A DNA stretch of 10,695 nucleotides, taken from a virus. Lineage: Duplodnaviria > Heunggongvirae > Uroviricota > Caudoviricetes. Position numbers and translations under genes: made by a program. The notes under the pieces were generated by a model. The model searched no databases, had not been told where the DNA came from, and was given only the letters and a program-made list of their open reading frames with translations. This document shows, piece after piece, positions 1 through 9,436 of the stretch; within the stretch, counting starts at the first letter, position 1, and each line of letters begins with the position of its first letter. The DNA is taken from IMG/VR virus record IMGVR_UViG_2695420597_000017, one strand, 5' to 3'.

Positions 1-1119
1 TCAAATAACCAACTTAACCCATTCCTGACCTCGAGTATCGTTATAGCGATCGGTGGTTGCCTGGACTTTATGTCCTAGTAATGTTTTTGTATCGATACCC
101 TGTGCACGGTACAGCCGTTCTGATAGAGAGCGTTGTTCATGAAATGTTGGCGGAGTTTTTCCTGCTGGTGGAATTATCCCAGCCAGATCCCGTGCTTTGG
201 CAAAGTAGTCGCTCAGGTTGTCTTTACTCATCGGCTTCGGTTGTTTCTGGTGCCGACTATGGATTAGATATGGACTTAATATTCTGTCTCGGCACCCATC
301 AATAACTTCTTTTAACGTTATCCCAATGGCATCACAGCGTAGTGTAAGCGGTAACGCCAGACGCATTCCGGTTTTTCCCTGGGTGATATGCAAGTGTTCG
401 TTCCACACATCTGAAAAACGCATGTGGCAAATGTCATCACGGCGCTGACCAGTAACAATCGCAAGAAGCATTGCGTTACGGATAAAGTGTTTTTCAGGCG
501 TTGCATTGTAAATTTTTTGCCAGTCTTCCATGGTGAGCCTGGCTCTGGTTACTTTAGGGATCGGTTTACGGGTAGCCTCCGGAGGATTCCATCCAGGAGG
601 AACTTCCCCTGCATGCTGTGCTTCTTTATAAATATCAACCCATAATCCACGATTTACTCTCGCTGTGCTGACCATGTCTTTATCCAGCCACTCATCCAGT
701 ATTAATGCAAAGTCTCTTACTTCCAGTTCTTTCAATGGGTGGTTTCCCAGACAGGAAACCAGGTATGCAGCCATTCGAGTTTTTTCTTTGTGAGTTGTAG
801 CTGCAATATCTCCATTTTTCAGTCGCGTGTCCTGTATTTTCAGATATCGACCAACCCATGCCTTTAATCTGATACCCCGACGTTTTGTTGCTGACGGACT
901 TTCATCAATTTTGCGCATGAAATATTCAGCTTCTGCTGCAGCTATTCGCTGATTGGCTGTGGAAGCGATTTTTTCTGCCTTACCTTTGTCTGTTCCGAGT
1001 CCGTGAAATTTTCCAGTCACAGGATTTTTATACTGGTAGTAAACTCTGCCAGTTCTGCGATCAAACTTTTCGTAAAGACCGGCTACGTCAGTGCTGTTTT
1101 TTCGTGGCCTCGGTGACAT
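1..1119 (-). CDS. int: Tyrosine site-specific integrase, lambda Int family (372 aa). ATG at 1119..1117, stop TGA at 3..1
   Basis: Full-length ORF in the six-frame track. C-terminal catalytic region HEQRSLSERLY...LLGHK...TDRYNDTRGQEW aligns by eye with the lambda Int R-H-R-Y region (HELRSLSARLY...LLGHK...YRDDRGREW). Its position beside an excisionase at the prophage end fits. No search run. Confidence 0.9.
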   Translation of the reverse strand: MSPRPRKNSTDVAGLYEKFDRRTGRVYYQYKNPVTGKFHGLGTDKGKAEKIASTANQRIAAAEAEYFMRKIDESPSATKRRGIRLKAWVGRYLKIQDTRLKNGDIAATTHKEKTRMAAYLVSCLGNHPLKELEVRDFALILDEWLDKDMVSTARVNRGLWVDIYKEAQHAGEVPPGWNPPEATRKPIPKVTRARLTMEDWQKIYNATPEKHFIRNAMLLAIVTGQRRDDICHMRFSDVWNEHLHITQGKTGMRLALPLTLRCDAIGITLKEVIDGCRDRILSPYLIHSRHQKQPKPMSKDNLSDYFAKARDLAGIIPPAGKTPPTFHEQRSLSERLYRAQGIDTKTLLGHKVQATTDRYNDTRGQEWVKLVI

Positions 1120-1357
1120 GAGTTAAAATCTCCTTCAGTGCATCATCATCGCCAGTATGAATTTCCGGCGCAATTCCCGTTTCACCAGGCCCAACAAATA
1201 CTGCTCGGCGATCTATCAGCCAACGCCCACGAATTTTTTGTGGTCTTGGAACGATGTATCCTAGTTTTCCGTATTTCACCAGGGTAGTGTTTGTTATTGG
1301 GAGACTGAACCGTTTTGGTTTCCACTCGTCGAGCGTTATCAGGTACTGTTCGCTCAT
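1088..1357 (-). CDS. xis: Excisionase (Xis-like), 89 aa from ATG at 1357..1355; the track ORF extends to a GTG at 1366
   Basis: Small basic ORF immediately upstream of int, overlapping it by 32 nt (typical xis-int overlap). Motif YLITLDEW...RRAVFV resembles the lambda Xis N-terminus (YLTLQEW). GGAG Shine-Dalgarno 9 nt upstream of the ATG. Confidence 0.7.
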   Translation of the reverse strand: MSEQYLITLDEWKPKRFSLPITNTTLVKYGKLGYIVPRPQKIRGRWLIDRRAVFVGPGETGIAPEIHTGDDDALKEILTHVTEATKKQH

Positions 1358-1418
1358 GGCTATCACTCCGGAACGCGCCAGTTGCAGAATATCAACGACA
1401 ACTGGCGACGGTTGAACA

Positions 1419-3890
1419 TTAAAAATCAGCCTGACTCGGGATCAGTTTTTGCCAGATAACTGAAACGTATTTTGCCTGGTAACGGGCGTCATCAAGTGCA
1501 TTATGGCGCTCACCTTCGAATGGAATAGCCGTTCTGGCATCGAAGTCTATGGCTTTCCCCAGCTCAACGATTGTGCGTACATCGCGATCGTTGTAGTAAC
1601 GCCACGGGCAGGGGATCCCCTGCCGTTCGTATGAACGGCGCAAAATCGTGTTGTCGAAGTTGGCTCCATTTCCCCAGACCTGAACAAAAAATTCACCGGA
1701 GTTTTCGTCGATAAATTCCCGCAATTGTAACAGTGCATCATCTAACGGGATTTCATCGGTCATAATGGCAGATTGCGCTTCGCGTGATTGCTTAAGCCAC
1801 CATTTAATGGTGTCCCGATCAATGACTCCGCCAGCAGTTTCCAGATCGATAGTCTTACTAAATTCCGGTCCCATATCTCCGGTTTGCGGATCGAAAAATA
1901 TTGCACCTATTGAGATGATCGGGGCATCAGGATTTTTTCCCATGGTTTCAAGGTCTATCATTAGATGGTCACACGTCCTGCTGGTGGATGTGATTACGTG
2001 ATGACCGTTCACCTTAATTGAGTGATCTGCCGTCTCGCCAGTTTCATTATCGCTATCGTGATGCTGATTGCCGCCAGTGTTCTCCTTGTGTGGATGTTCA
2101 GCGCCTTCCATTTCCTCCGGATCATCTTCCTGAACTTCAACCTGATACTCTTCATCGAATGTTTCCTGGTATGTTGCGTCGCCCATCACCGCGCCACAAT
2201 CAGGGCAGTTGCCGCCGCCGGTCTGACCGCAGGCGGTGCAGACTTTTTCCACTTCCTGTTGCGCCACTGGTTCAGGCTGTTTCGTTTCTGGCTCGTTTTG
2301 TAACGCATTTGGGCTGTTTTGTTCCGCTTTTTGGTAGTTCCGTTCCGATTCATGCTGGTTCTGGTTTACAGAATCGCGGGTCTGGATCCCCTTAACCCAT
2401 TTCGGATCATTCGGGTCGCTAATCCCTGCAACAAATTCTCCGCGAGAGGCAGCAAGCAACTTATCGGCGTCAGGCTGGCTGATATTGGCTGCCTGCATAA
2501 TTTTGTTTACTTCGTCAGCGGTAACTTTTACCGGCTCTGGTTGTGCGGTCGTGTCAGATGCACCAGTATTTTGTTGTGAACCTGAGTATGTACCGTTTTT
2601 GCGGGCGAAATATTCTTCTTTCGTGATTTCAGTAGCCCCTGCAGCCAGTGCCTTATCCAGACCAGAAAGTTTGTTTGCGCGACCGTATTTTTCGCTATCC
2701 TTGTCGGTGAAGAGGAAGTAGAACGGCCCTTCACGCTCTACAGATGGTTCGACTTCCACTTTGCATTCGGTTTTTTCGTTGTCCGGAATTGCCGTTTCCA
2801 CTGCATCAGTTTCTGGTACTGGCGACGAGAGAGTATCAGTTGCGCTCTGATTTCTTCCTTCATCTTCAAACACGCCCTTTGTAGTCAGGTATTCAGTAAT
2901 GTATTTGTTCAGTGCCACAGGGTCTTTGTGAATGTCGATCGGACGTTCACGGACAAGGCCAAAAATAGTCTGGCGGTCGTAGCGAAGGGCATCAGGCTGT
3001 TTGCGCATTGATGCCGAGATACGCTTCCAGTCTTCGCGGTCGTTGTCGATAACTTCATTTTTTGCCCAGCGATGGATGCTGCCGTCAATGTTTCCGGCAT
3101 CCACATCACCAGGCCAGAGAGCGTAGGCCAGTTCGTCATCCAGTGTTTTCCATGTCTGCTTGTATTCGCGATGAGTGGCAGCAATGACCGGGCTGATTTT
3201 TCCTGTTGAATTTTCAGTGTTCTGTTGATTGGCTCTGGCGCGGGCGAGATCAACAACAGACGTGTATTTTCCAGTCTCTTTGCGCTCTGCGTCCTGCCGT
3301 TTTTTCCAGTTACGTAATTCAGCCTGAATTTCGGGCCATTTGGCACCCGGATTACATTTGTGTTTAACCCATCCGATAGCGAACAGTTTGCGTTCCGGAT
3401 ACATAGCGTTAATTTCAGGCGTTTTCATCAGTGCTTCAACGATATGCCCGTCAAAGGTAGCAACGTCTTCCTGCAGTAATTCCTGCGCGTCAATCGCCAT
3501 ATCAACGGTGATGTTTTCACATGTACCGAACTTAACCAGGACCGCGTTCTGTACTTCAAGGGACAGCTTGTCAAAATTGACGTTCATCGGATCGGATTCT
3601 GGTTCGACCGGAATAAAGGAAGCGGATTCCTCATCCCAGCGGTTTTCCTGCATATATTCAGCATCCCAGGAATCGAGGGCAGGGCGGGGTATACCGGGTT
3701 TATCCTCGCAGACAAGAAATTTATAAGCGCAGTCCTGAGCAGCCGGATAATGTTCCAGGAATTGCCAGTGAAATTTTGCGCGGGCGCGACGTTCATCACC
3801 GGCTTCAATGGCAGTGGCTACAGCGACGGCACCTTCTTCCTTTATTGCCTGTTCGTCCGGAATGGCGGCGCAAATAAAGACTTTACTCAT
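1419..3890 (-). CDS. Large multidomain protein (823 aa) with C-terminal DnaQ-like DEDDh 3'-5' exonuclease domain; proteins of this kind are often annotated as exodeoxyribonuclease VIII-like in lambdoid prophages
   Basis: Long uninterrupted ORF with ATG at 3890 and a GAGGT Shine-Dalgarno upstream. The C-terminal ~190 aa carry exonuclease motifs Exo I (MIDLETMG), Exo II (VWGNGANFD) and Exo III (HNALDDARYQ). The central acidic/Q-rich linker contains a CxxC-x9-CxxC zinc-ribbon-like motif (CTACGQTGGGNCPDCG). The N-terminal ~330 aa are of unrecognised function. The gene sits where lambdoid phages carry recombination functions (between xis and the pL-operon genes). Confidence 0.8.
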   Translation of the reverse strand: MSKVFICAAIPDEQAIKEEGAVAVATAIEAGDERRARAKFHWQFLEHYPAAQDCAYKFLVCEDKPGIPRPALDSWDAEYMQENRWDEESASFIPVEPESDPMNVNFDKLSLEVQNAVLVKFGTCENITVDMAIDAQELLQEDVATFDGHIVEALMKTPEINAMYPERKLFAIGWVKHKCNPGAKWPEIQAELRNWKKRQDAERKETGKYTSVVDLARARANQQNTENSTGKISPVIAATHREYKQTWKTLDDELAYALWPGDVDAGNIDGSIHRWAKNEVIDNDREDWKRISASMRKQPDALRYDRQTIFGLVRERPIDIHKDPVALNKYITEYLTTKGVFEDEGRNQSATDTLSSPVPETDAVETAIPDNEKTECKVEVEPSVEREGPFYFLFTDKDSEKYGRANKLSGLDKALAAGATEITKEEYFARKNGTYSGSQQNTGASDTTAQPEPVKVTADEVNKIMQAANISQPDADKLLAASRGEFVAGISDPNDPKWVKGIQTRDSVNQNQHESERNYQKAEQNSPNALQNEPETKQPEPVAQQEVEKVCTACGQTGGGNCPDCGAVMGDATYQETFDEEYQVEVQEDDPEEMEGAEHPHKENTGGNQHHDSDNETGETADHSIKVNGHHVITSTSRTCDHLMIDLETMGKNPDAPIISIGAIFFDPQTGDMGPEFSKTIDLETAGGVIDRDTIKWWLKQSREAQSAIMTDEIPLDDALLQLREFIDENSGEFFVQVWGNGANFDNTILRRSYERQGIPCPWRYYNDRDVRTIVELGKAIDFDARTAIPFEGERHNALDDARYQAKYVSVIWQKLIPSQADF

Positions 3891-3985
3891 TTTGTTTTAA
3901 CCTCATTACAGATTTCAGGGTGAACGAATCCCTGCCATTGCTGGCATTTTTAATCCGTTGGTATGGCGTTAATATGGCTGGCGGG

Positions 3986-4174
3986 TTATCCAGCCGGTAT
4001 TTCGTTATTCAGGTTCAGCGATACTTTTTTTAACGGGAGGCATTCACCGGGGATTTTTTGTTCGTCCCTTACCTGAATGCAGGATGACTTACTGTCATAA
4101 ATTCCGGTAATCACATTTTGTGGCTCACCCGTTATAAGAAAAACGGTCATCACCAGTGCAAATGCTGAAGTCAC
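3986..4174 (-). CDS. ydfD: YdfD-like small protein with N-terminal hydrophobic segment (62 aa, GTG start)
   Basis: ORF directly downstream of dicB with a GTGA start/stop overlap, suggesting translational coupling. GGAG Shine-Dalgarno 7 nt upstream of the GTG. The N-terminus (SAFALVMTVFLITGEP) is hydrophobic and the C-terminus ends EIPAG, which resembles my recollection of Qin prophage YdfD. Not verifiable here. Confidence 0.5.
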   Translation of the reverse strand: MTSAFALVMTVFLITGEPQNVITGIYDSKSSCIQVRDEQKIPGECLPLKKVSLNLNNEIPAG

Positions 4175-4359
4175 TGCTGTTCTCCGATAATACCAAGTTC
4201 AAGAAGGGCAATTCTGGAAAGTATGGAATTATCATTGAGAAGATAAGGTTCATATTTTCTCATCTTAATGGCATCTTCCGTAAACTCCCGGTTACTGAGC
4301 AGAACACCAATATCAAAACAACCTTCAGACGTATTAACGTTTGGTAATAACGTTTCCAT
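4171..4359 (-). CDS. dicB: Cell division inhibitor DicB homologue (62 aa)
   Basis: ATG at 4359..4357 with a GAGGA Shine-Dalgarno 7 nt upstream. Protein METLLPNVNTSEGCFDIGVLLSNREFTEDAI... closely matches my recollection of Qin prophage DicB (MKTLLPNVNTSEGCFEIGV...). It lies immediately downstream of a DicF-like sRNA, as in the Qin dicB operon. The track ORF 4171..4464 is an upstream GTG extension that I consider unlikely. Confidence 0.75.
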   Translation of the reverse strand: METLLPNVNTSEGCFDIGVLLSNREFTEDAIKMRKYEPYLLNDNSILSRIALLELGIIGEQQ

Positions 4360-4528
4360 TATCGCGTCCTCAACAATGAATTTTGTGATGCAGTGCCTGG
4401 TGCCTCCAGGTGACGTTAACCAGTTAACAATTAACGCCGGATACAGAGAGTCCACCCATAACACTGTTTTTGGTTTTAACTGTTCCGCGTGCGCTGAGCC
4501 GCATTCACCGCATCACAAAATTCACTTT

Positions 4529-4571
4529 AAAAACGGCGGCAGAGCAGTCACGGAGTAAAACTGATACCGCC
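4529..4571 (-). terminator. Intrinsic terminator hairpin forming the 3' end of DicF
   Basis: On the minus strand, GGCGG (complement of 4571..4567) pairs with CCGCC (complement of 4539..4535), with an inner CAGU/ACUG helix, followed by a U5 tract (complement of 4533..4529). Confidence 0.5.
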
Positions 4572-4586
4572 AAACGTCACCAGAAA
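4534..4586 (-). ncRNA. dicF: DicF small regulatory RNA (about 53 nt; antisense regulator of ftsZ and other mRNAs in E. coli)
   Basis: The minus strand reads UUUCUGGUGACGUUUGGCGGUAUCAGUUUUACUCCGUGACUGCUCUGCCGCCG followed by UUUUU, which matches my recollection of K-12 DicF almost base for base. It sits between ydfC-like and dicB-like genes as in the Qin prophage. Exact ends are processing sites and cannot be fixed from sequence. Confidence 0.75.
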
Positions 4587-4926
4587 ATTGATAACAGAGG
4601 GCGTTGCAGCGGGGTTGTCACTTAAGCGTATGGTCAACCTGACAACTCGGTGTCCTCAACGGGGAAGGAATAACCCCGCCATACTTACCGCCGCGCCATT
4701 TCGCGGGTTGCCACAACCGGAAGCGCACGGTCGACGAAAATTTAACGACAGGCTATCTATGAACCAGCTACCTCGCCGTGCGCTTTCGCGTTATGGTCTG
4801 ACTTTTCAGGGAAATATCCTTTCAGTAAACTGTCAGTGCCGGATGCTCACCCGTGTCCGGCGCACGCACTCCACCTCACCCGTGGAGAATTCCTTAATTA
4901 CCAACCTTAGCTTCGTTGGTTAGCTA

Positions 4927-5145
4927 TTAACGCGGGTATGTAATCATTCTGGCAATGCTTAATGCCGCTGCTTTTTCCAGATTGGTGATATCCTGCTCCA
5001 GAGCGGACAGATTTTCAGCCTGCTTAGCCCTGGCTTCATTAGCCCATTTCAGATCCTGCGCTGCATTAATTTTCTGGCGCATCCACTCATAAAGTTCATC
5101 ATCGGTATAGTCTGGCGCGATTATGACGGGTTCTCGTTTCTGCAT
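4927..5145 (-). CDS. ydfC: YdfC-like small protein (72 aa)
   Basis: ATG at 5145..5143 with a GAGGA Shine-Dalgarno 7 nt upstream. Size and position (third gene of a ydfA-ydfB-ydfC-dicF-dicB array) match Qin prophage YdfC. Sequence identity is not verified. Confidence 0.6.
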   Translation of the reverse strand: MQKREPVIIAPDYTDDELYEWMRQKINAAQDLKWANEARAKQAENLSALEQDITNLEKAAALSIARMITYPR

Positions 5146-5174
5146 ACTGATTCCTCGCGGTGCTACTTCGCTTA

Positions 5175-5303
5175 TCAGCCGTTAGATTTTGCCGAGCTGG
5201 AAAGCGCCTGTTTAAACTCACTGAAGCTGAGAGCTTCTTCGCCTTCGGCAAGGTCTTCGAAGTATTCTTCGTAAGCCTTTTCCATGATTGTGTCGAAATC
5301 CAT
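5175..5303 (-). CDS. ydfB: YdfB-like small protein (42 aa); not in the supplied ORF track because it is below the length cutoff
   Basis: My own translation of the minus strand from ATG 5303..5301 gives MDFDTIMEKAYEEYFEDLAEGEEALSFSEFKQALSSSAKSNG with stop TGA at 5177..5175. An AGGTGA Shine-Dalgarno lies about 6 nt upstream. The ATG is 1 nt after the ydfA stop (tight coupling). Acidic small protein of YdfB size and position. Confidence 0.6.
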   Translation of the reverse strand: MDFDTIMEKAYEEYFEDLAEGEEALSFSEFKQALSSSAKSNG

Positions 5304-5304
5304 A

Positions 5305-5460
5305 TCACTCACCTGAGTTTCTTTCCAGCCAGCGACGGGCACCATTTTCGGTTTTAAACGTTTTGCTTTTGGTATACGTCATCGCGGTGAACGTACCGTC
5401 CTGGTTGGGGAACACGCCACATACCAGAGATTCGCTGTTGCCAAGATCGATAGTATCCAT
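5305..5460 (-). CDS. ydfA: YdfA-like small protein (51 aa, DUF1391-like); the track ORF 5305..5547 is a possible 80-aa N-terminally extended form
   Basis: Internal ATG at 5460..5458 has a GAGG Shine-Dalgarno at 6-nt spacing and gives MDTIDLGNSESLVCGVFPNQDGTFTAMTYTKSKTFKTENGARRWLERNSGE (51 aa, the K-12 YdfA size). The upstream ATG at 5547 has its GAGG only 3 nt away. Confidence 0.6.
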   Translation of the reverse strand: MDTIDLGNSESLVCGVFPNQDGTFTAMTYTKSKTFKTENGARRWLERNSGE

Positions 5461-5644
5461 GCTGACCTCATTTCCCCTTAACGCTGGGGTAGCGGAACTA
5501 AAAACCTGCTGCGCTGTTATACAAAGTGTTCCCGCCGTCATGTTCATACGCCTCGGGCTGGCTACTTACCCCCTGACCACTGCTTGGTAACTCGAAGTAT
5601 TGCCCGGCGTTCTGTGGGGCGGGGTGGGTTGGTATGTTGTTAAG

Positions 5645-5681
5645 GTAACAAGAGTTACCTTTCGAGTCAATACAATGTTGC
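5645..5681. promoter_or_regulatory. Predicted left operator/promoter region (OL/pL-like): one perfect-armed GTAAC-N4-GTTAC site (5645..5658) and a degenerate site 23 bp away (5668..5681, sharing CAATGTTnC with the OR site at 6408..6421)
   Basis: The same inverted-repeat motif recurs twice between cI and cro. A TTGACT -35-like hexamer on the minus strand (complement of 5669..5664) sits next to the operator. No convincing -10 could be assigned, so the promoter call is tentative. Confidence 0.4.
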
Positions 5682-5702
5682 AAAAGGTACGTTTGAGGGC
5701 AT

Positions 5703-5725
5703 AAAAAACCCGCAATGAATGCGGG
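5703..5725 (-). terminator. Rho-independent terminator downstream of cI
   Basis: On the minus strand, a stem CCCGCA/UGCGGG with a 6-nt loop (plus-strand 5709..5725) is followed by a U6 run (complement of the A6 at 5703..5708). It lies 8 bp past the cI stop codon (5735..5733). Confidence 0.6.
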
Positions 5726-5732
5726 TTCTGAC

Positions 5733-6407
5733 TCAGTCTAAGTATTGATGTATTTGTGAAACTTTACCTTTAATGGTGTAACCACCATTCAGTTCGATGG
5801 GTTTGTAAAGCGGATTCAGTGACAACAGATAGATGTTTGGTCCGTCAATCGCAACTTTTTTTAGTGTTACGTTTGGCGTTCCTTCCAATTGGATTAAGAT
5901 TATTTTTCCCACCAGTTCTCTAATGTTACTTGAGCATGGTGTGATCAGCACGGTAGATCCGTCGGGGATGGTTGGGAGGCCGTTAGAGTTTGTCATCGCA
6001 TCTCCCTCAACATGCAATAAAAAAGAGTTTTCAGCGGTTTTTGTCATGACATCAACCCAATTCTTAATACCAGGAATCTCGGTTACTGGACAACTCATAT
6101 CCCAATAACCAGCCTGTTCCCACGTTAAAACGGGCAACCGGGCGATGTTGTCACTAATGTAAGGGTACTGATTCAGACGCAGATCATCGGCTTTATCGTG
6201 ACCGTCCTTTCCATAAAGAATCCATTCAGGAGATTTGGAAAGCAATTTTGACAGTAGATACAAATTCTCACCGTCAGGTTTTGAAGAGCCATTTTCCCAT
6301 TTTGTTACGGATACACGAGATATGCCGATTGCTTTCGCAACCTGCTGTTGGGTTAATCCAACGTCTTTTCGACGATTCCGAATACGTTCGCTGATAGTGT
6401 TTTTCAT
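5733..6407 (-). CDS. cI: CI-type prophage repressor: N-terminal XRE-family HTH plus C-terminal S24 (LexA-like) peptidase domain, 224 aa from ATG 6407..6405. The catalytic-serine position is Ala
   Basis: HTH region LTQQQVAKAIGISRVSVTKWENG. Ala-Gly candidate cleavage site in EQAGYW. The S24 motif reads LLHVEGDAMT...VTLKKV, where lambda CI has EGNSM and LexA has GMSM; the conserved Lys is present in LKK. The gene is divergent from cro with an operator-bearing intergenic region. The track ORF starts at an upstream TTG (6506) that would overlap the cro Shine-Dalgarno; ATG 6449 or 6407 is more plausible, and I chose 6407 so that the operators fall outside the CDS. Confidence 0.85.
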   Translation of the reverse strand: MKNTISERIRNRRKDVGLTQQQVAKAIGISRVSVTKWENGSSKPDGENLYLLSKLLSKSPEWILYGKDGHDKADDLRLNQYPYISDNIARLPVLTWEQAGYWDMSCPVTEIPGIKNWVDVMTKTAENSFLLHVEGDAMTNSNGLPTIPDGSTVLITPCSSNIRELVGKIILIQLEGTPNVTLKKVAIDGPNIYLLSLNPLYKPIELNGGYTIKGKVSQIHQYLD

Positions 6408-6498
6408 GTAACCAATGTTACTACCAAGTGATGTTGCTATGGTTGACATTGTTATGTAACTATTGTTACCCTTCTGCTCGAAATAACAGGAGAGTTTT
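6408..6498. promoter_or_regulatory. Divergent cI/cro promoter-operator region (OR/pR/pRM-like) with GTAAC-N4-GTTAC operator sites at 6408..6421 and 6456..6469, 48 bp centre to centre, and a possible weak middle site near 6432..6446
   Basis: Two near-identical imperfect palindromes (GTAACCAATGTTAC and GTAACTATTGTTAC). The spacing is twice the ~24-bp operator period typical of lambdoid OR. A TTGACA -35-like hexamer sits at 6443..6448. The cro Shine-Dalgarno AGGAG is at 6489..6493. Confidence 0.5.
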
Positions 6499-6714
6499 AT
6501 GTTCAAAGATGATGTTCTGCGCTATTTCAAAAAAAAGCGACTAGTAGCTGAGGCTCTTGGAATTTCACATGTGGCTGTTGTGCGGTGGAAAGCAGTTATT
6601 CCCAAACTTCGCGCAATGGAACTGGATGAAATTACTAACGGTGAATTGAAATACAACCCAGAACTTTACAAGAAGCAGGATAGCACCTCAAACGAAGGAA
6701 AGAATGATTCATGA
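6499..6714 (+). CDS. cro: Cro-like repressor (71 aa), P22 Cro-like HTH
   Basis: ATG at 6499 preceded by AGGAG at 5-nt spacing. Protein MFKDDVLRYFKKKRLVAEALGISHVAVVRWKAVIP... resembles my recollection of P22 Cro (MYKKDVIDHFGTQRAVAKALGISDAAVSQWKEVIP...). Divergent from cI. Confidence 0.85.
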   Translation: MFKDDVLRYFKKKRLVAEALGISHVAVVRWKAVIPKLRAMELDEITNGELKYNPELYKKQDSTSNEGKNDS

Positions 6715-8127: not shown

Positions 8128-8802
8128 ATGAAAAACATTGCGGCAGTTGGGGTTCTTGAACGTATTCGCAGACTTGCACCACAGGGGTCGGTTCCACCGT
8201 ACCGGACGGTGGAGGAGTGGCGGGAATGGCAACTTGCTGAAGGACGAAAACGCAGCGAGGAGATTAACCGCCAGAATCGCCAGTTGCGGGTGGAAAAAAT
8301 CCTGAATCGTTCGGGCATCCAGCCTCTGCACAGCAAATGCTCGTTTGCGAATTATCAGGTGCAGAACGACGGGCAAAAATACGCGCTGAGCCAGGCCAAA
8401 TCCATAGCTGACGAACTGATGACCGGGTGCACGAATTTTGTGTTCAGCGGTAAAACCGGCACCGGGAAAAATCACCTTGCAGCGGCGATGGGCAACCGGC
8501 TGATGGTGAAGGGGCGCAGCGTGATTATCGTCACCGTGTCTGACGTCATGAGCGTGTTGCATGACAGCTACGACAACGGCAAATCCGGGGAAAAATTTTT
8601 ACAGGAGCTTTGCGGGGTTGATTTGCTGGTCCTGGATGAAATAGGCGTTCAGCGGGAGACGAAAAACGAGCAGGTGGTATTGCACCAGATAATTGATCGC
8701 CGGACAGCATCACTGTGCAGTGTCGGGATGTTAACAAACCTGAATCATGACGGTTCCACCGTACCGGACGGTGGAGGAGTGGCGGGAATGGCAACTTGCT
8801 GA
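8128..8802 (+). CDS. DnaC-type (IstB-like AAA+) replicative helicase loader, 5' fragment (224 aa): reads through duplication copy 1, then runs out of frame into copy 2 and ends after 17 aberrant residues
   Basis: Walker A GKTGTGKNHL and Walker B LLVLDEIG. ATG 8128 with GGGGGTG Shine-Dalgarno, 6 nt after the O-like stop. The C-terminal 17 aa (DGSTVPDGGGVAGMATC) are a frameshifted read of the duplicated N-terminal DNA. Confidence 0.7.
   Translation: MKNIAAVGVLERIRRLAPQGSVPPYRTVEEWREWQLAEGRKRSEEINRQNRQLRVEKILNRSGIQPLHSKCSFANYQVQNDGQKYALSQAKSIADELMTGCTNFVFSGKTGTGKNHLAAAMGNRLMVKGRSVIIVTVSDVMSVLHDSYDNGKSGEKFLQELCGVDLLVLDEIGVQRETKNEQVVLHQIIDRRTASLCSVGMLTNLNHDGSTVPDGGGVAGMATC
8189..8750 (+). repeat. 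Tandem direct duplication, copy 1 (562 bp)
   Basis: Sequence 8189..8749 is repeated at 8751..9311 (offset 562). I saw about 6 substitutions in the stretches compared (e.g. GGC/GGT, GTG/GCG, GTG/GAG, GAC/GAT, GGG/GGT, GTT/ATT). Confidence 0.85.
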
Positions 8803-9436
8803 AGGACGAAAACGCAGCGAGGAGATTAACCGCCAGAATCGCCAGTTGCGGGTGGAAAAAATCCTGAATCGTTCGGGCATCCAGCCTCTGCACAGCAAAT
8901 GCTCGTTTGCGAATTATCAGGTGCAGAACGACGGGCAAAAATACGCGCTGAGCCAGGCCAAATCCATAGCTGACGAACTGATGACCGGGTGCACGAATTT
9001 TGTGTTCAGCGGTAAAACCGGCACCGGGAAAAATCACCTTGCAGCGGCGATGGGTAACCGGCTGATGGCGAAGGGGCGCAGCGTGATTATCGTCACCGAG
9101 TCTGATGTCATGAGCGTGTTGCATGACAGCTACGACAACGGCAAATCCGGTGAAAAATTTTTACAGGAGCTTTGCGGGGTTGATTTGCTGGTCCTGGATG
9201 AAATAGGCATTCAGCGGGAGACGAAAAACGAGCAGGTGGTATTGCACCAGATAATTGATCGCCGGACAGCATCACTGTGCAGTGTCGGGATGTTAACAAA
9301 CCTGAATCATGCCGCAATGAGCACGCTTCTTGGTGAGAGGATTATGGACCGCATGACCATGAACGGTTGTCGGTGGGTGACGTTTAACTGGGATAGCTGG
9401 CGTTCAAATGTCAGCTTTCCGGGAGTTGTGAAGTAA
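8747..9436 (+). CDS. DnaC-type helicase loader, 3' fragment (229 aa): starts at an ATG at the duplication junction and lacks the first ~20 codons of the gene; carries the authentic C-terminus
   Basis: 95% of its length is near-identical to ORF 8128..8802 (3 amino-acid differences across the repeat). It then continues with NHAAMSTLLGERIMDRMTMNGCRWV..., giving the DnaC/YdaV-size protein once a single copy is assumed. No Shine-Dalgarno precedes ATG 8747. Confidence 0.6.
   Translation: MTVPPYRTVEEWREWQLAEGRKRSEEINRQNRQLRVEKILNRSGIQPLHSKCSFANYQVQNDGQKYALSQAKSIADELMTGCTNFVFSGKTGTGKNHLAAAMGNRLMAKGRSVIIVTESDVMSVLHDSYDNGKSGEKFLQELCGVDLLVLDEIGIQRETKNEQVVLHQIIDRRTASLCSVGMLTNLNHAAMSTLLGERIMDRMTMNGCRWVTFNWDSWRSNVSFPGVVK
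8751..9312 (+). repeat. Tandem direct duplication, copy 2 (562 bp)
   Basis: See copy 1. The unit length is not a multiple of 3, so the duplication shifts the reading frame by +1. Confidence 0.85.

Follow-up and report, generated by a model that had tools for sequence, protein, structure and literature searches.

What kind of nuclease fills the recombination slot of a prophage when no annealing protein stands beside it, and how might such a phage recombine? The question is raised by a virus sequence of 10,695 nucleotides (IMG/VR record IMGVR_UViG_2695420597_000017, Caudoviricetes; hereafter the window), in which one large gene lies between the excisionase and the leftward early genes. The open reading frame runs from 1419 to 3890 on the minus strand, starts with ATG and encodes 823 amino acids (aa), with a ribosome-binding site (GAGG, 3901..3904, minus strand) 10 nt 5' of the start codon. 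It had been singled out by an earlier reading of the bare nucleotides (the sequence-only reading), and the motifs cited there are all found in the translation. PHROG 2082 covers the protein end to end (1–823 of 823 aa), the best genome matches carry the RefSeq labels 'exonuclease' or '3'-5' exonuclease', and K-12 YdfE is 90% identical over aa 1–256. The K-12 counterpart of the gene is the Qin pseudogene ydfE, of which the window holds an intact orthologue.

The surroundings leave little room for a partner. Directly 3' of the gene lies the excisionase gene (1088..1366, minus strand; Pfam Exc and RefSeq annotation of the syntenic locus), followed by the integrase gene (1–1119; open reading frames and RefSeq annotation of the same locus). 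The stop codon of the exonuclease gene (1419) and the start of xis (1366) are only 52 bp apart, too little for an annealing-protein gene, which bears out the claim that no RecT-, Bet- or Erf-like gene lies between the two. Upstream in the same leftward operon, all on the minus strand, are a ydfD-like DUF1482 gene (3986–4174, Pfam DUF1482), dicB (4171–4464, Pfam DicB) and the DicF sRNA (4534–4585, Rfam DicF, 72.5 bits), in an order matching the K-12 Qin annotation dicF-dicB-ydfD-ydfE. A promoter scan of positions 1000–6700 returned zero sites, even where the operon promoters must lie, and therefore carries no weight as regards a promoter of the gene itself.

The identity of the nuclease is clear from its C-terminus. 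Pfam PF16473 (Rv2179c-like 3'-5' exonuclease) matches aa 642–813 (1452..1967, minus strand) at E 2.2e-67 and 226.6 bits against a cutoff of 27, spanning model positions 2–177 of 177. The motifs DLET (aa 646), WGNGANFD (739) and HNALDDARYQ (796) supply the full DEDDh set, with D646/E648 in Exo I, D746 in Exo II and H796/D801 in Exo III (H-x4-D), and the catalytic columns are invariant or almost so in an alignment of relatives; in P0238, a representative of the DEDDh type, two of the catalytic residues have been lost. The sole match of a phmmer search against PDB sequences was T4 DexA (8KEL, E 1.5e-6), with about 22% identity to the exonuclease domain. An AlphaFold model of the protein has a pLDDT of about 80–90 over aa 640–819, and its best Foldseek matches were T4 DexA, RNase T and Orn (probability 1.0, target TM 0.63–0.73). 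The C-terminal DEDDh (DnaQ-like) 3'-5' exonuclease proposed by the sequence-only reading is thereby confirmed as a member of the DexA/Rv2179c family; its catalytic residues are intact and activity is predicted. A nuclease of the RecE or lambda Exo type was sought as the opposite outcome, but neither a PD-(D/E)XK nor a YqaJ domain was detected with Pfam at E<=1, and BLAST against RecE 612–1048 gave no similarity. Hence, the protein does differ from these enzymes as had been claimed, and identity with standard RecE or lambda Exo is ruled out.

Which nucleic acid the domain degrades is less certain from the fold. The namesake of PF16473 is a 3'-5' exoribonuclease, and the fold also agrees strongly with those of RNase T and oligoribonuclease, so the protein could conceivably trim the 3' ends of phage or host RNA in the manner of Rv2179c, RNase T and Orn, acting on transcripts of the operon or on sRNAs such as DicF, which is produced from this very operon. 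We regard this as very improbable, given that the closest relative in both sequence and structure is the DNA exonuclease DexA, that the domain takes the place of a DNase in a RecE-homologous protein, and that the sibling effectors described below work on DNA. We therefore infer a DNA substrate.

The remaining three-quarters of the protein consist of folded modules and disordered tethers. The sequence-only reading had left the N-terminus unassigned; Pfam names do exist, YdfE_N (PF27430) and YdfE_C (PF27432), and these names carry no function, so that only the functional half of the statement stands. Both families are precomputed on homologues that are 83–98% identical over aa 1–344, and membership of the YdfE-type scaffold is assigned through these annotated homologues together with K-12 YdfE orthology. 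Three modules are predicted with high confidence (pLDDT >90 for aa 1–220, 241–345 and 385–435). The first, in the YdfE_N region (aa 1–225; 3216..3890, minus strand), is an alpha/beta fold followed by a helical subdomain. The second, in the YdfE_C region (aa 240–345; 2856..3173, minus strand), is helical, common to RecE-family proteins and the most widely shared module among relatives, with weak similarity to RecE 295–368. The third (aa 385–435; 2586..2738, minus strand) is a small beta/alpha module between disordered segments that is also found in several relatives. For aa 1–440, Foldseek found no BFVD match at E<=1e-3, a profile search against PDB sequences was empty, and the N-terminal Exonuc_VIII domain (PF06630) had no match at E<=1 in the window protein; that domain is present in other DEDDh-type relatives (P0135, P0230 and P0256). 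No conserved polar residues were found in the N-terminal modules among relatives, which argues for a non-catalytic scaffold.

Between these modules and the nuclease lies a linker (aa 474–621; 2028..2471, minus strand) that is mostly disordered, with a pLDDT <50 over most of its length, and as acidic and Q-rich as had been described (20% acidic and 16% Q+N over aa 474–640). It contains a cysteine motif, C551/C554/C562/C565 (2196..2240, minus strand; regular expression on the translation), with a pLDDT of about 67. The sequence-only reading had noted this zinc-ribbon-like motif correctly in the linker but with a spacing of x9; the spacing is CxxC-x7-CxxC, and the knuckle is kept in Rac-SA53 RecE, with a putative role in metal binding. 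The suggested likeness of the linker to the middle of Rac RecE proved to be strong, with 74% identity of aa 474–621 to Rac-SA53 RecE 471–611 (BLASTP, 148 aa, E 1e-65). The linker is, however, only part of the shared region: homology to RecE begins already near aa 238–262, and RecE 295–611 is 42% identical to the window protein over 361 aa. The NCBIfam exoVIII model NF007259 aligns with aa 238–625 only (model positions 261–602 of 877) and scores 285 bits against an equivalog cutoff of 1269, which places the protein outside full-length RecE.

Relatives demonstrate directly that these parts are exchanged, as the idea of a domain-swapped RecE-like scaffold had implied. The same N-terminus occurs with a RecE-type nuclease, and the RecE N-terminus occurs with a DEDDh domain. 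Overall, the N-terminal modules are found with four C-termini, namely PD-(D/E)XK, DEDDh, a third group that is probably Rad52-like and one of unassigned type, and some whole sub-families of the scaffold carry no nuclease at all. The C-terminus goes together with the neighbouring gene. In all three PD-(D/E)XK versions on the same scaffold (P0127, P0222 and P0248) recT is directly next, whereas in all seven DEDDh lineages (the window, mEp460, PPompW, Tritos, P0135, P0230 and P0256) the next genes are xis/int, with no annealing protein. The common scaffold bearing interchangeable C-termini and this recT pairing rule are what is new in the present analysis.

The gene is far from rare. Of 5426 complete Escherichia coli genomes, 3511 (about 65%) contain at least 80% of its length, in up to 10 places per genome, and it is often retained in defective prophages. 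The architecture was called unusual by the sequence-only reading, a description that does not survive this prevalence or the published nuclease-without-SAP module type (PMC12315714). Both the gene and its lack of a partner had been catalogued before, and in this respect the present work mainly confirms and tidies. In the folded modules dN/dS is 0.0–0.18, comprising 0.09–0.15 for the N-terminal modules, 0.07–0.18 for aa 385–435 and 0–0.15 for the DEDDh domain, which is the part of the gene under strongest constraint, against 0.2–0.85 in the linker. The values for the folded modules indicate a gene under selection and not a chance open reading frame, and together with the prevalence they rule out a decaying pseudogene. 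Some copies are frameshifted, for example that of PPompW_EH1846.

The swapping of C-termini raises the possibility that the core function resides in the scaffold, to which the nuclease is a replaceable accessory, with the N-terminal and middle modules binding a host or phage factor and either targeting the effector or acting alone. The catalytic loss in P0238, the one DEDDh variant that appears dead, and the nuclease-less sub-families suggest that the scaffold may be the essential part; 'RecE-2' proteins lacking a nuclease domain are described by Zheng et al. (PMC12315714). The purifying selection on the N-terminal modules, their occurrence with four C-termini and the long acidic disordered tether, typical of recruitment proteins, point the same way, and candidate partners would be DNA-end machinery, the replisome or SSB. 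Against this, there is no known partner, and an intact, most constrained DEDDh domain means that the nuclease matters in the window lineage. We consider a scaffold-centred function doubtful, and it complements rather than excludes the explanation that we prefer, in which the nuclease acts on phage DNA ends.

That explanation starts from what accompanies the nuclease. No RecT or Bet was detected by tblastn (E<=1) in the window or in whole related phages, and Exo and Gam were likewise missing from the window, with only weak, non-significant hits (E 0.005–0.58) in related or flanking loci. RecT, Bet, Exo and Gam were found in 0 of 80 IMG/VR loci and in neither of the complete phages mEp460 and PPompW, and Pfam searches of unannotated open reading frames and neighbours revealed no annealing protein. 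The absence of Erf, Sak4, Abc2 and SSB is taken from annotation and the published Tritos classification. These searches of the window, the IMG/VR loci and the two phages therefore brought no hidden annealing protein to light. The check for a RecT-like gene elsewhere was negative for the window and the related phages in full, the prophage itself extending beyond the window.

Chi sites are abundant in the same sequences. By pattern count, one copy of Chi (GCTGGTGG) lies inside the exonuclease gene (1980..1987, plus strand), and the window has three on the plus strand (164, 1980 and 6971) and none on the minus strand, with 0.2 expected per strand. The corresponding counts are 7 and 2 in mEp460, and 193 and 17 in 79 related loci (7.2 expected per strand), which are closely related, non-independent and in some cases include host flank. 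Zheng et al. (Genome Res 2025, PMC12315714) describe a lambdoid 'Tritos' type of Rec module that has a nuclease, lacks SAP and anti-RecBCD functions and is Chi-rich. The window shows this combination, with an early-left nuclease, no SAP, SSB or anti-RecBCD gene, and Chi abundant in the active (top-strand) orientation.

Taken together, we propose, as a plausible but tentative reading, that the 3'-5' exonuclease trims DNA ends for phages that recombine via host RecBCD, Chi and RecA. As the last gene of the leftward early (dicBF/pL-type) operon, it would be produced on induction or infection, judging from position only. The protein is modular: three folded modules and a long tether, acidic and disordered and bearing the Cys4 knuckle, make up a scaffold that on this reading is largely non-enzymatic, and a catalytically intact DexA/DnaQ-type 3'-5' exonuclease stands where RecE has its 5'-3' PD-(D/E)XK nuclease. 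The exonuclease would trim 3'-ended strands at phage DNA ends, and such blunting of 3' tails could keep the ends loadable for host RecBCD in phages with no annealing protein, no RecBCD inhibitor and many correctly oriented Chi sites; RecBCD would then recombine the ends through Chi and RecA. In a variant, 3'-5' resection may bare 5' tails able to anneal with no annealing protein to help, as with host XthA in in-vivo cloning. In favour of the proposal, 3' tails at DNA ends impede helicase reloading and are cleared by host 3'-5' ssDNA exonucleases (PMC5592934), and other C-termini on the scaffold, PD-(D/E)XK and probably Rad52-like, are also recombination effectors. Against it, the usual effect of a 3'-5' exonuclease is to inhibit recombination, since the 3' end needed for invasion is destroyed, a point also made by Zheng et al. 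(2025, PMC12315714), and our literature search on ydfE found no functional study.

The resemblance to DexA also suggests a different role, in superinfection exclusion of the HREX type, in which a DexA-like domain destroys incoming modified (5hmC-type) T-even DNA as EcD does. Among solved structures T4 DexA is the nearest relative, and Kang et al. (2025, PMC12153337) report both that EcD supplied on a plasmid protects E. coli from T4 and that Escherichia abounds in DexA homologues. The product of dicB, in the same operon, is reported to be phage-protective (PMC6832061), and a gene that about 65% of the complete E. coli genomes have kept, often within prophages that are defective, would suit a defence role. 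However, EcD is a stand-alone protein that, according to its primers, begins right at MIDTET without a 640-aa scaffold, and the window gene ends a repressor-controlled early operon and is not a separately expressed moron. The 5hmC-recognition residues W152 and D169 are replaced here by Y and A, tentative calls from a low-identity alignment, and the tetramer residue D90, which EcD lacks, is matched by a D in the window protein, in a region of uncertain alignment. The sibling architectures on the scaffold are recombination proteins with recT, and PADLOC (2023 library) gave no match to this or any other known defence system. On balance, we think an exclusion function unlikely. Separately, a 20-mer from the EcD primers matched IMG/VR by chance, at a place that has no corresponding open reading frame.

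A wider reading also suggests itself. The N-terminal and middle parts of YdfE and RecE might form a delivery platform for swappable DNA-end effectors, its DEDDh version being a distinct RecBCD/Chi-coupled, annealing-protein-free recombination strategy; this generalization is possible, and we hold it with considerable doubt. The effectors would include a 5'-3' exonuclease with RecT, a lone 3'-5' exonuclease, a Rad52-like annealase in fused form, and one or more further domains. The scaffold would then bind some host or DNA-end factor, and the N-terminal 600 residues of RecE would be explained too. The gene is among the commonest prophage genes in E. coli, and its frequent label 'exodeoxyribonuclease VIII' is wrong, given the opposite polarity and different fold. 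Its function bears on how Chi-rich lambdoid phages without Red or RecET recombine and form concatemers, and on the purpose of the non-catalytic two-thirds of RecE, a recombineering workhorse. The pairing rule, PD-(D/E)XK with recT and DEDDh without, offers a simple testable handle.

Among known systems, the closest are Tritos and mEp460, whose 'exonuclease VIII' genes are the same gene (nucleotide identity 92.5% and 93.8%, both 823 aa) with the same neighbours, xis-int downstream and ydfD-dicB-DicF upstream, no annealing protein, no Gam and abundant Chi. The window copy differs in belonging to a prophage beside potC with another immunity and replication region, and there is no essential difference; the main text of PMC12315714 classifies the Tritos module and does not dissect the protein domains. 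K-12 Qin ydfE (b1577) lies in an identical operon order (dicF-dicB-ydfD-ydfE-int) but is interrupted by IS2E after about residue 256 and so lacks the RecE-like middle and the exonuclease that the window copy retains. T4 DexA (8KEL/8KEN) and EcD belong to the same DEDDh sub-family as the window domain but are stand-alone proteins of about 190–227 aa, whereas the window domain is the C-terminal quarter of 823 aa. The host DnaQ-fold enzymes ExoI, ExoX and RNase T share the catalytic fold and polarity and are only distantly similar in sequence; they serve the host in housekeeping, lack a RecE-like scaffold, and provide a precedent for 3'-tail trimming that controls RecBCD access. Rac RecE, which acts with RecT, has a homologous middle, occupies the same slot between kil/dicB-type genes and xis-int, and has a similar total size and the same beads-on-a-string build. 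It differs from the window protein in its unrelated N-terminus (the first ~240 aa of the window protein), in the recT that the window locus lacks, and in a 5'-3' PD-(D/E)XK (DUF3799-like) nuclease where the window protein carries a 3'-5' DEDDh domain.

The 823-aa ORF at 1419-3890 (-) ends in a DEDDh (DnaQ-like) 3'-5' exonuclease, as a sequence-only reading had proposed. Residues 642-813 match the Rv2179c-like 3'-5' exonuclease family in Pfam (E 2.2e-67), the sole PDB sequence match is T4 DexA (8KEL, E 1.5e-6), and DexA, RNase T and oligoribonuclease head the Foldseek list when the AlphaFold model is the query. The DEDDh set consists of D646, E648, D746, H796 and D801. All three motifs quoted in that reading are present in the ORF, and as a whole its observation and interpretation hold up except in minor points, such as the spacing of the zinc-ribbon-like cysteines, which is CxxC-x7-CxxC (residues 551-565) and not CxxC-x9-CxxC. 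AlphaFold2, given a 63-sequence alignment, confidently predicts a module with an alpha/beta and then a helical part (aa 1-220), a helical module (aa 241-345), a small beta/alpha module (aa 385-435) and the exonuclease module (aa 640-819). Residues 347-383, 436-548 and 570-636 are predicted to be disordered, the zinc knuckle has a pLDDT of ~67, and the low pTM (0.34-0.45) is consistent with a beads-on-a-string build. Measured against eight homologues, dN/dS comes to 0.09-0.15 in the first module, 0.07-0.18 in the aa 385-435 module, 0-0.15 in the exonuclease and 0.2-0.85 in the linkers. For the same gene pairs (the window versus L010, L019, L065 and other IMG/VR loci), dS is 0.4-0.6 in aa 1-225 versus 0.02-0.1 in the exonuclease domain. 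Because dS varies several-fold between modules, the exonuclease gene is itself a recombination mosaic, with breakpoints inside it.

The suggested resemblance of the linker to the middle of Rac RecE is real: aa 474-621, the acidic linker plus Cys4 knuckle, are 74% identical to Rac-SA53 RecE 471-611 by BLASTP, and tblastn widens the likeness to RecE 295-611 (42%, aa 262-621). The NCBIfam exoVIII equivalog covers aa 238-625 only, at 285 bits versus a cutoff of 1269, and no likeness to the RecE PD-(D/E)XK C-terminus or PF06630 N-terminus was detected in the 823-aa protein. As judged from these alignments, the protein shares the non-catalytic middle of RecE and differs at both ends, which together with the equivalog score rules out RecE family membership in the equivalog sense.

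The architecture had been called unusual, but the gene is an ordinary one, already represented in PHROG, RefSeq, the Pfam YdfE_N/C and Rv2179c-like families, K-12 ydfE and a published Tritos-type module. Its PHROG 2082 match spans 823/823 positions, genes 92-98% identical occur in EHEC PPompW prophages and in phages mEp460, Tritos, HannyBb and PhiR42_1, and of 5426 complete E. coli genomes 3511 carry at least 80% of the gene; among genomes with any match, the median is two places. The RefSeq name is either '3'-5' exonuclease' or plain 'exonuclease', many phage depositors write 'exodeoxyribonuclease VIII', and precomputed Pfam matches of close homologues are PF27430 (YdfE_N) and PF27432 (YdfE_C). 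Over aa 1-256 the protein shares 90% identity with the K-12 Qin pseudogene ydfE, which is then interrupted by IS2E and has the same gene order around it (dicF-dicB-ydfD-ydfE-intQ); the gene in the window is thus ydfE in intact form. A literature search found no functional study of ydfE. In PPompW_EH1846 and its EHEC relatives a 97.7%-identical copy (LC567839.1, 1632-4099) carries an annotated frameshift caused by a deletion, so intact and decayed copies coexist within the species.

Used as the query of an exhaustive HMMER search, aa 1-344 returned only 181 representatives among 1.84 billion, and module mapping of the longer ones yielded four groups. The window N-terminus is joined to a RecE-type nuclease in P0127, P0222 and P0248, and a RecE N-terminus to the DEDDh domain in P0135, P0229, P0230, P0238, P0251, P0256 and P0269; the P0128 group (~18 members) combines the YdfE-type scaffold with a conserved ~300-aa C-terminus without Pfam assignment in place of a nuclease, and the P0126 group a second C-terminus of unassigned kind. 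The scaffold thus carries interchangeable effectors. Nuclease type is strictly associated with recT: recT comes directly after the PD-(D/E)XK version in 3/3 examined (P0127, P0222 and P0248), whereas all DEDDh versions (window, mEp460, PPompW, Tritos, P0135, P0230 and P0256) have xis/int downstream, with no annealing protein. The P0126 type likewise lacks recT. One DEDDh-type relative, P0238 (752 aa), has a K (DLKTMG) for the glutamate of Exo I and an A (SFAN) for the aspartate of Exo II and is probably catalytically dead; its scaffold is kept despite these changes.

The P0128-type C-terminus may be a Rad52-like third effector. Sub-threshold Rad52_Rad22 Pfam matches recur in 7/18 members (best E 0.017), hhalign against RAD52 N-terminal motifs gives E 0.044 with an approximate RAD52 sequence, and some depositors label stand-alone phage homologues RAD52-like or single-strand-annealing. 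The PHROGs label is 'exonuclease', and a PDB profile search with this C-terminus was negative. These matches suggest that scaffold-annealase fusions may account for the 'RecE-2' proteins described by Zheng et al. 2025. Pectobacterium phage ZF40 (JQ177065.1, 2738-3595) provides an example of the group.

The window covers the left arm of a lambdoid prophage. Integrase (1-1119), xis (1088-1366) and the exonuclease gene, which has a GAGG ribosome-binding site and comes last in the leftward early operon, are all on (-). The operon at 3986-5547 (-) copies the K-12 Qin dicBF operon: the DUF1482/ydfD-like gene (3986-4174), dicB (4171-4464), DicF sRNA (4534-4585, 72.5 bits), and ydfC- and ydfA/DUF1391-like genes. 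The dicB ORF as called has 97 aa and a GTG start; its true start is probably internal, because the Pfam DicB model spans only aa 36-97. A LexA-type repressor (5733-6506, -) is followed by cro, a YdaT-like gene and replication genes on (+). A sigma-70 consensus scan of 1000-6700 found 0 promoter-like sites versus 7.7 expected from shuffles, although the divergent repressor/cro promoters have to lie near 6500, probably a limit of the scan criteria. Inside the DnaC/IstB-like replication-loader gene, 562 bp are duplicated in tandem (8189-8750 and 8751-9312, +; ~99% identical). The upstream copy (ORF 8128-8802) runs out of frame at its end, the downstream one (8747-9436) is missing the first ~20 residues, and the syntenic reference locus has one 248-aa gene. 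The duplication is either real or an assembly artefact. After the replication genes of mEp460 (33822-35171, -) and Tritos (13359-14472, -) lies a conserved ~449-aa ORF without Pfam match, possibly a moron or another accessory gene.

The exonuclease stop codon lies only 52 bp from xis, leaving no annealing-protein gene between them, as had been noted. When Rac RecT and the lambda proteins Bet, Exo and Gam served as tblastn queries, neither the window nor the syntenic genome locus gave a significant match, nor did PPompW_EH1846 (complete prophage) or mEp460 (complete genome); 80 IMG/VR loci bearing the same exonuclease domain were likewise negative. Annotations of PPompW_EH1846 and mEp460 list RusA only, and Pfam found no annealing-protein family among unannotated mEp460 ORFs. 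Three Chi sites (GCTGGTGG) lie at 164, 1980 (inside the exonuclease gene) and 6971, all on (+), the orientation of the lambda top strand, with 0 on (-) and ~0.2 expected per strand. Across 79 related loci, which are akin and not independent, the count is 193/17 versus 7.2 expected per strand; mEp460 has 7/2.

Lambdoid phages that lack a RecBCD inhibitor are rich in Chi, and recombination-dependent growth by way of RecBCD has been proposed for them (PMC12315714). Helicases reload less readily on DNA ends with 3' tails, a hindrance that 3'-5' ssDNA exonucleases remove (PMC5592934). Because an intact DEDDh exonuclease under selection sits on a RecE-homologous scaffold in an early operon, with oriented Chi and neither annealing protein nor Gam alongside, we tentatively propose that the protein would trim 3'-ended strands at phage DNA ends and thereby let host RecBCD/Chi/RecA act, or would expose 5' tails able to anneal with no annealing protein present, by analogy with XthA, which is reported to do so during in-vivo cloning (PMC6379578). 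A function centred on the scaffold, with the nuclease as accessory, is rather doubtful and would be compatible with trimming. An exclusion nuclease like HREX is unlikely: such a role is reported for the stand-alone DexA homologue EcD (PMC12153337), but the exonuclease here is fused to a scaffold, its operon position also speaks against exclusion, the 5hmC residues are not conserved in a low-identity alignment and PADLOC gives no match, none of which is decisive. RNA as the substrate is very unlikely.

Compared with known systems, the partner-less arrangement is not new. DnaQ-like 3'-5' nucleases in lambdoid Rec modules were described by Zheng et al. (Genome Res 2025, PMC12315714), whose Table 1 defines a 'Tritos' functional type of four phages with a nuclease and without SAP, SSB or anti-RecBCD, and Chi counts of 21/6 to 7/2; the Tritos gene is 92.5% identical to ours, with the same neighbours. 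To this the present work adds the identification of the gene as ydfE, the interchangeable effectors, the association of nuclease type with recT and the lead to a Rad52-like third effector.
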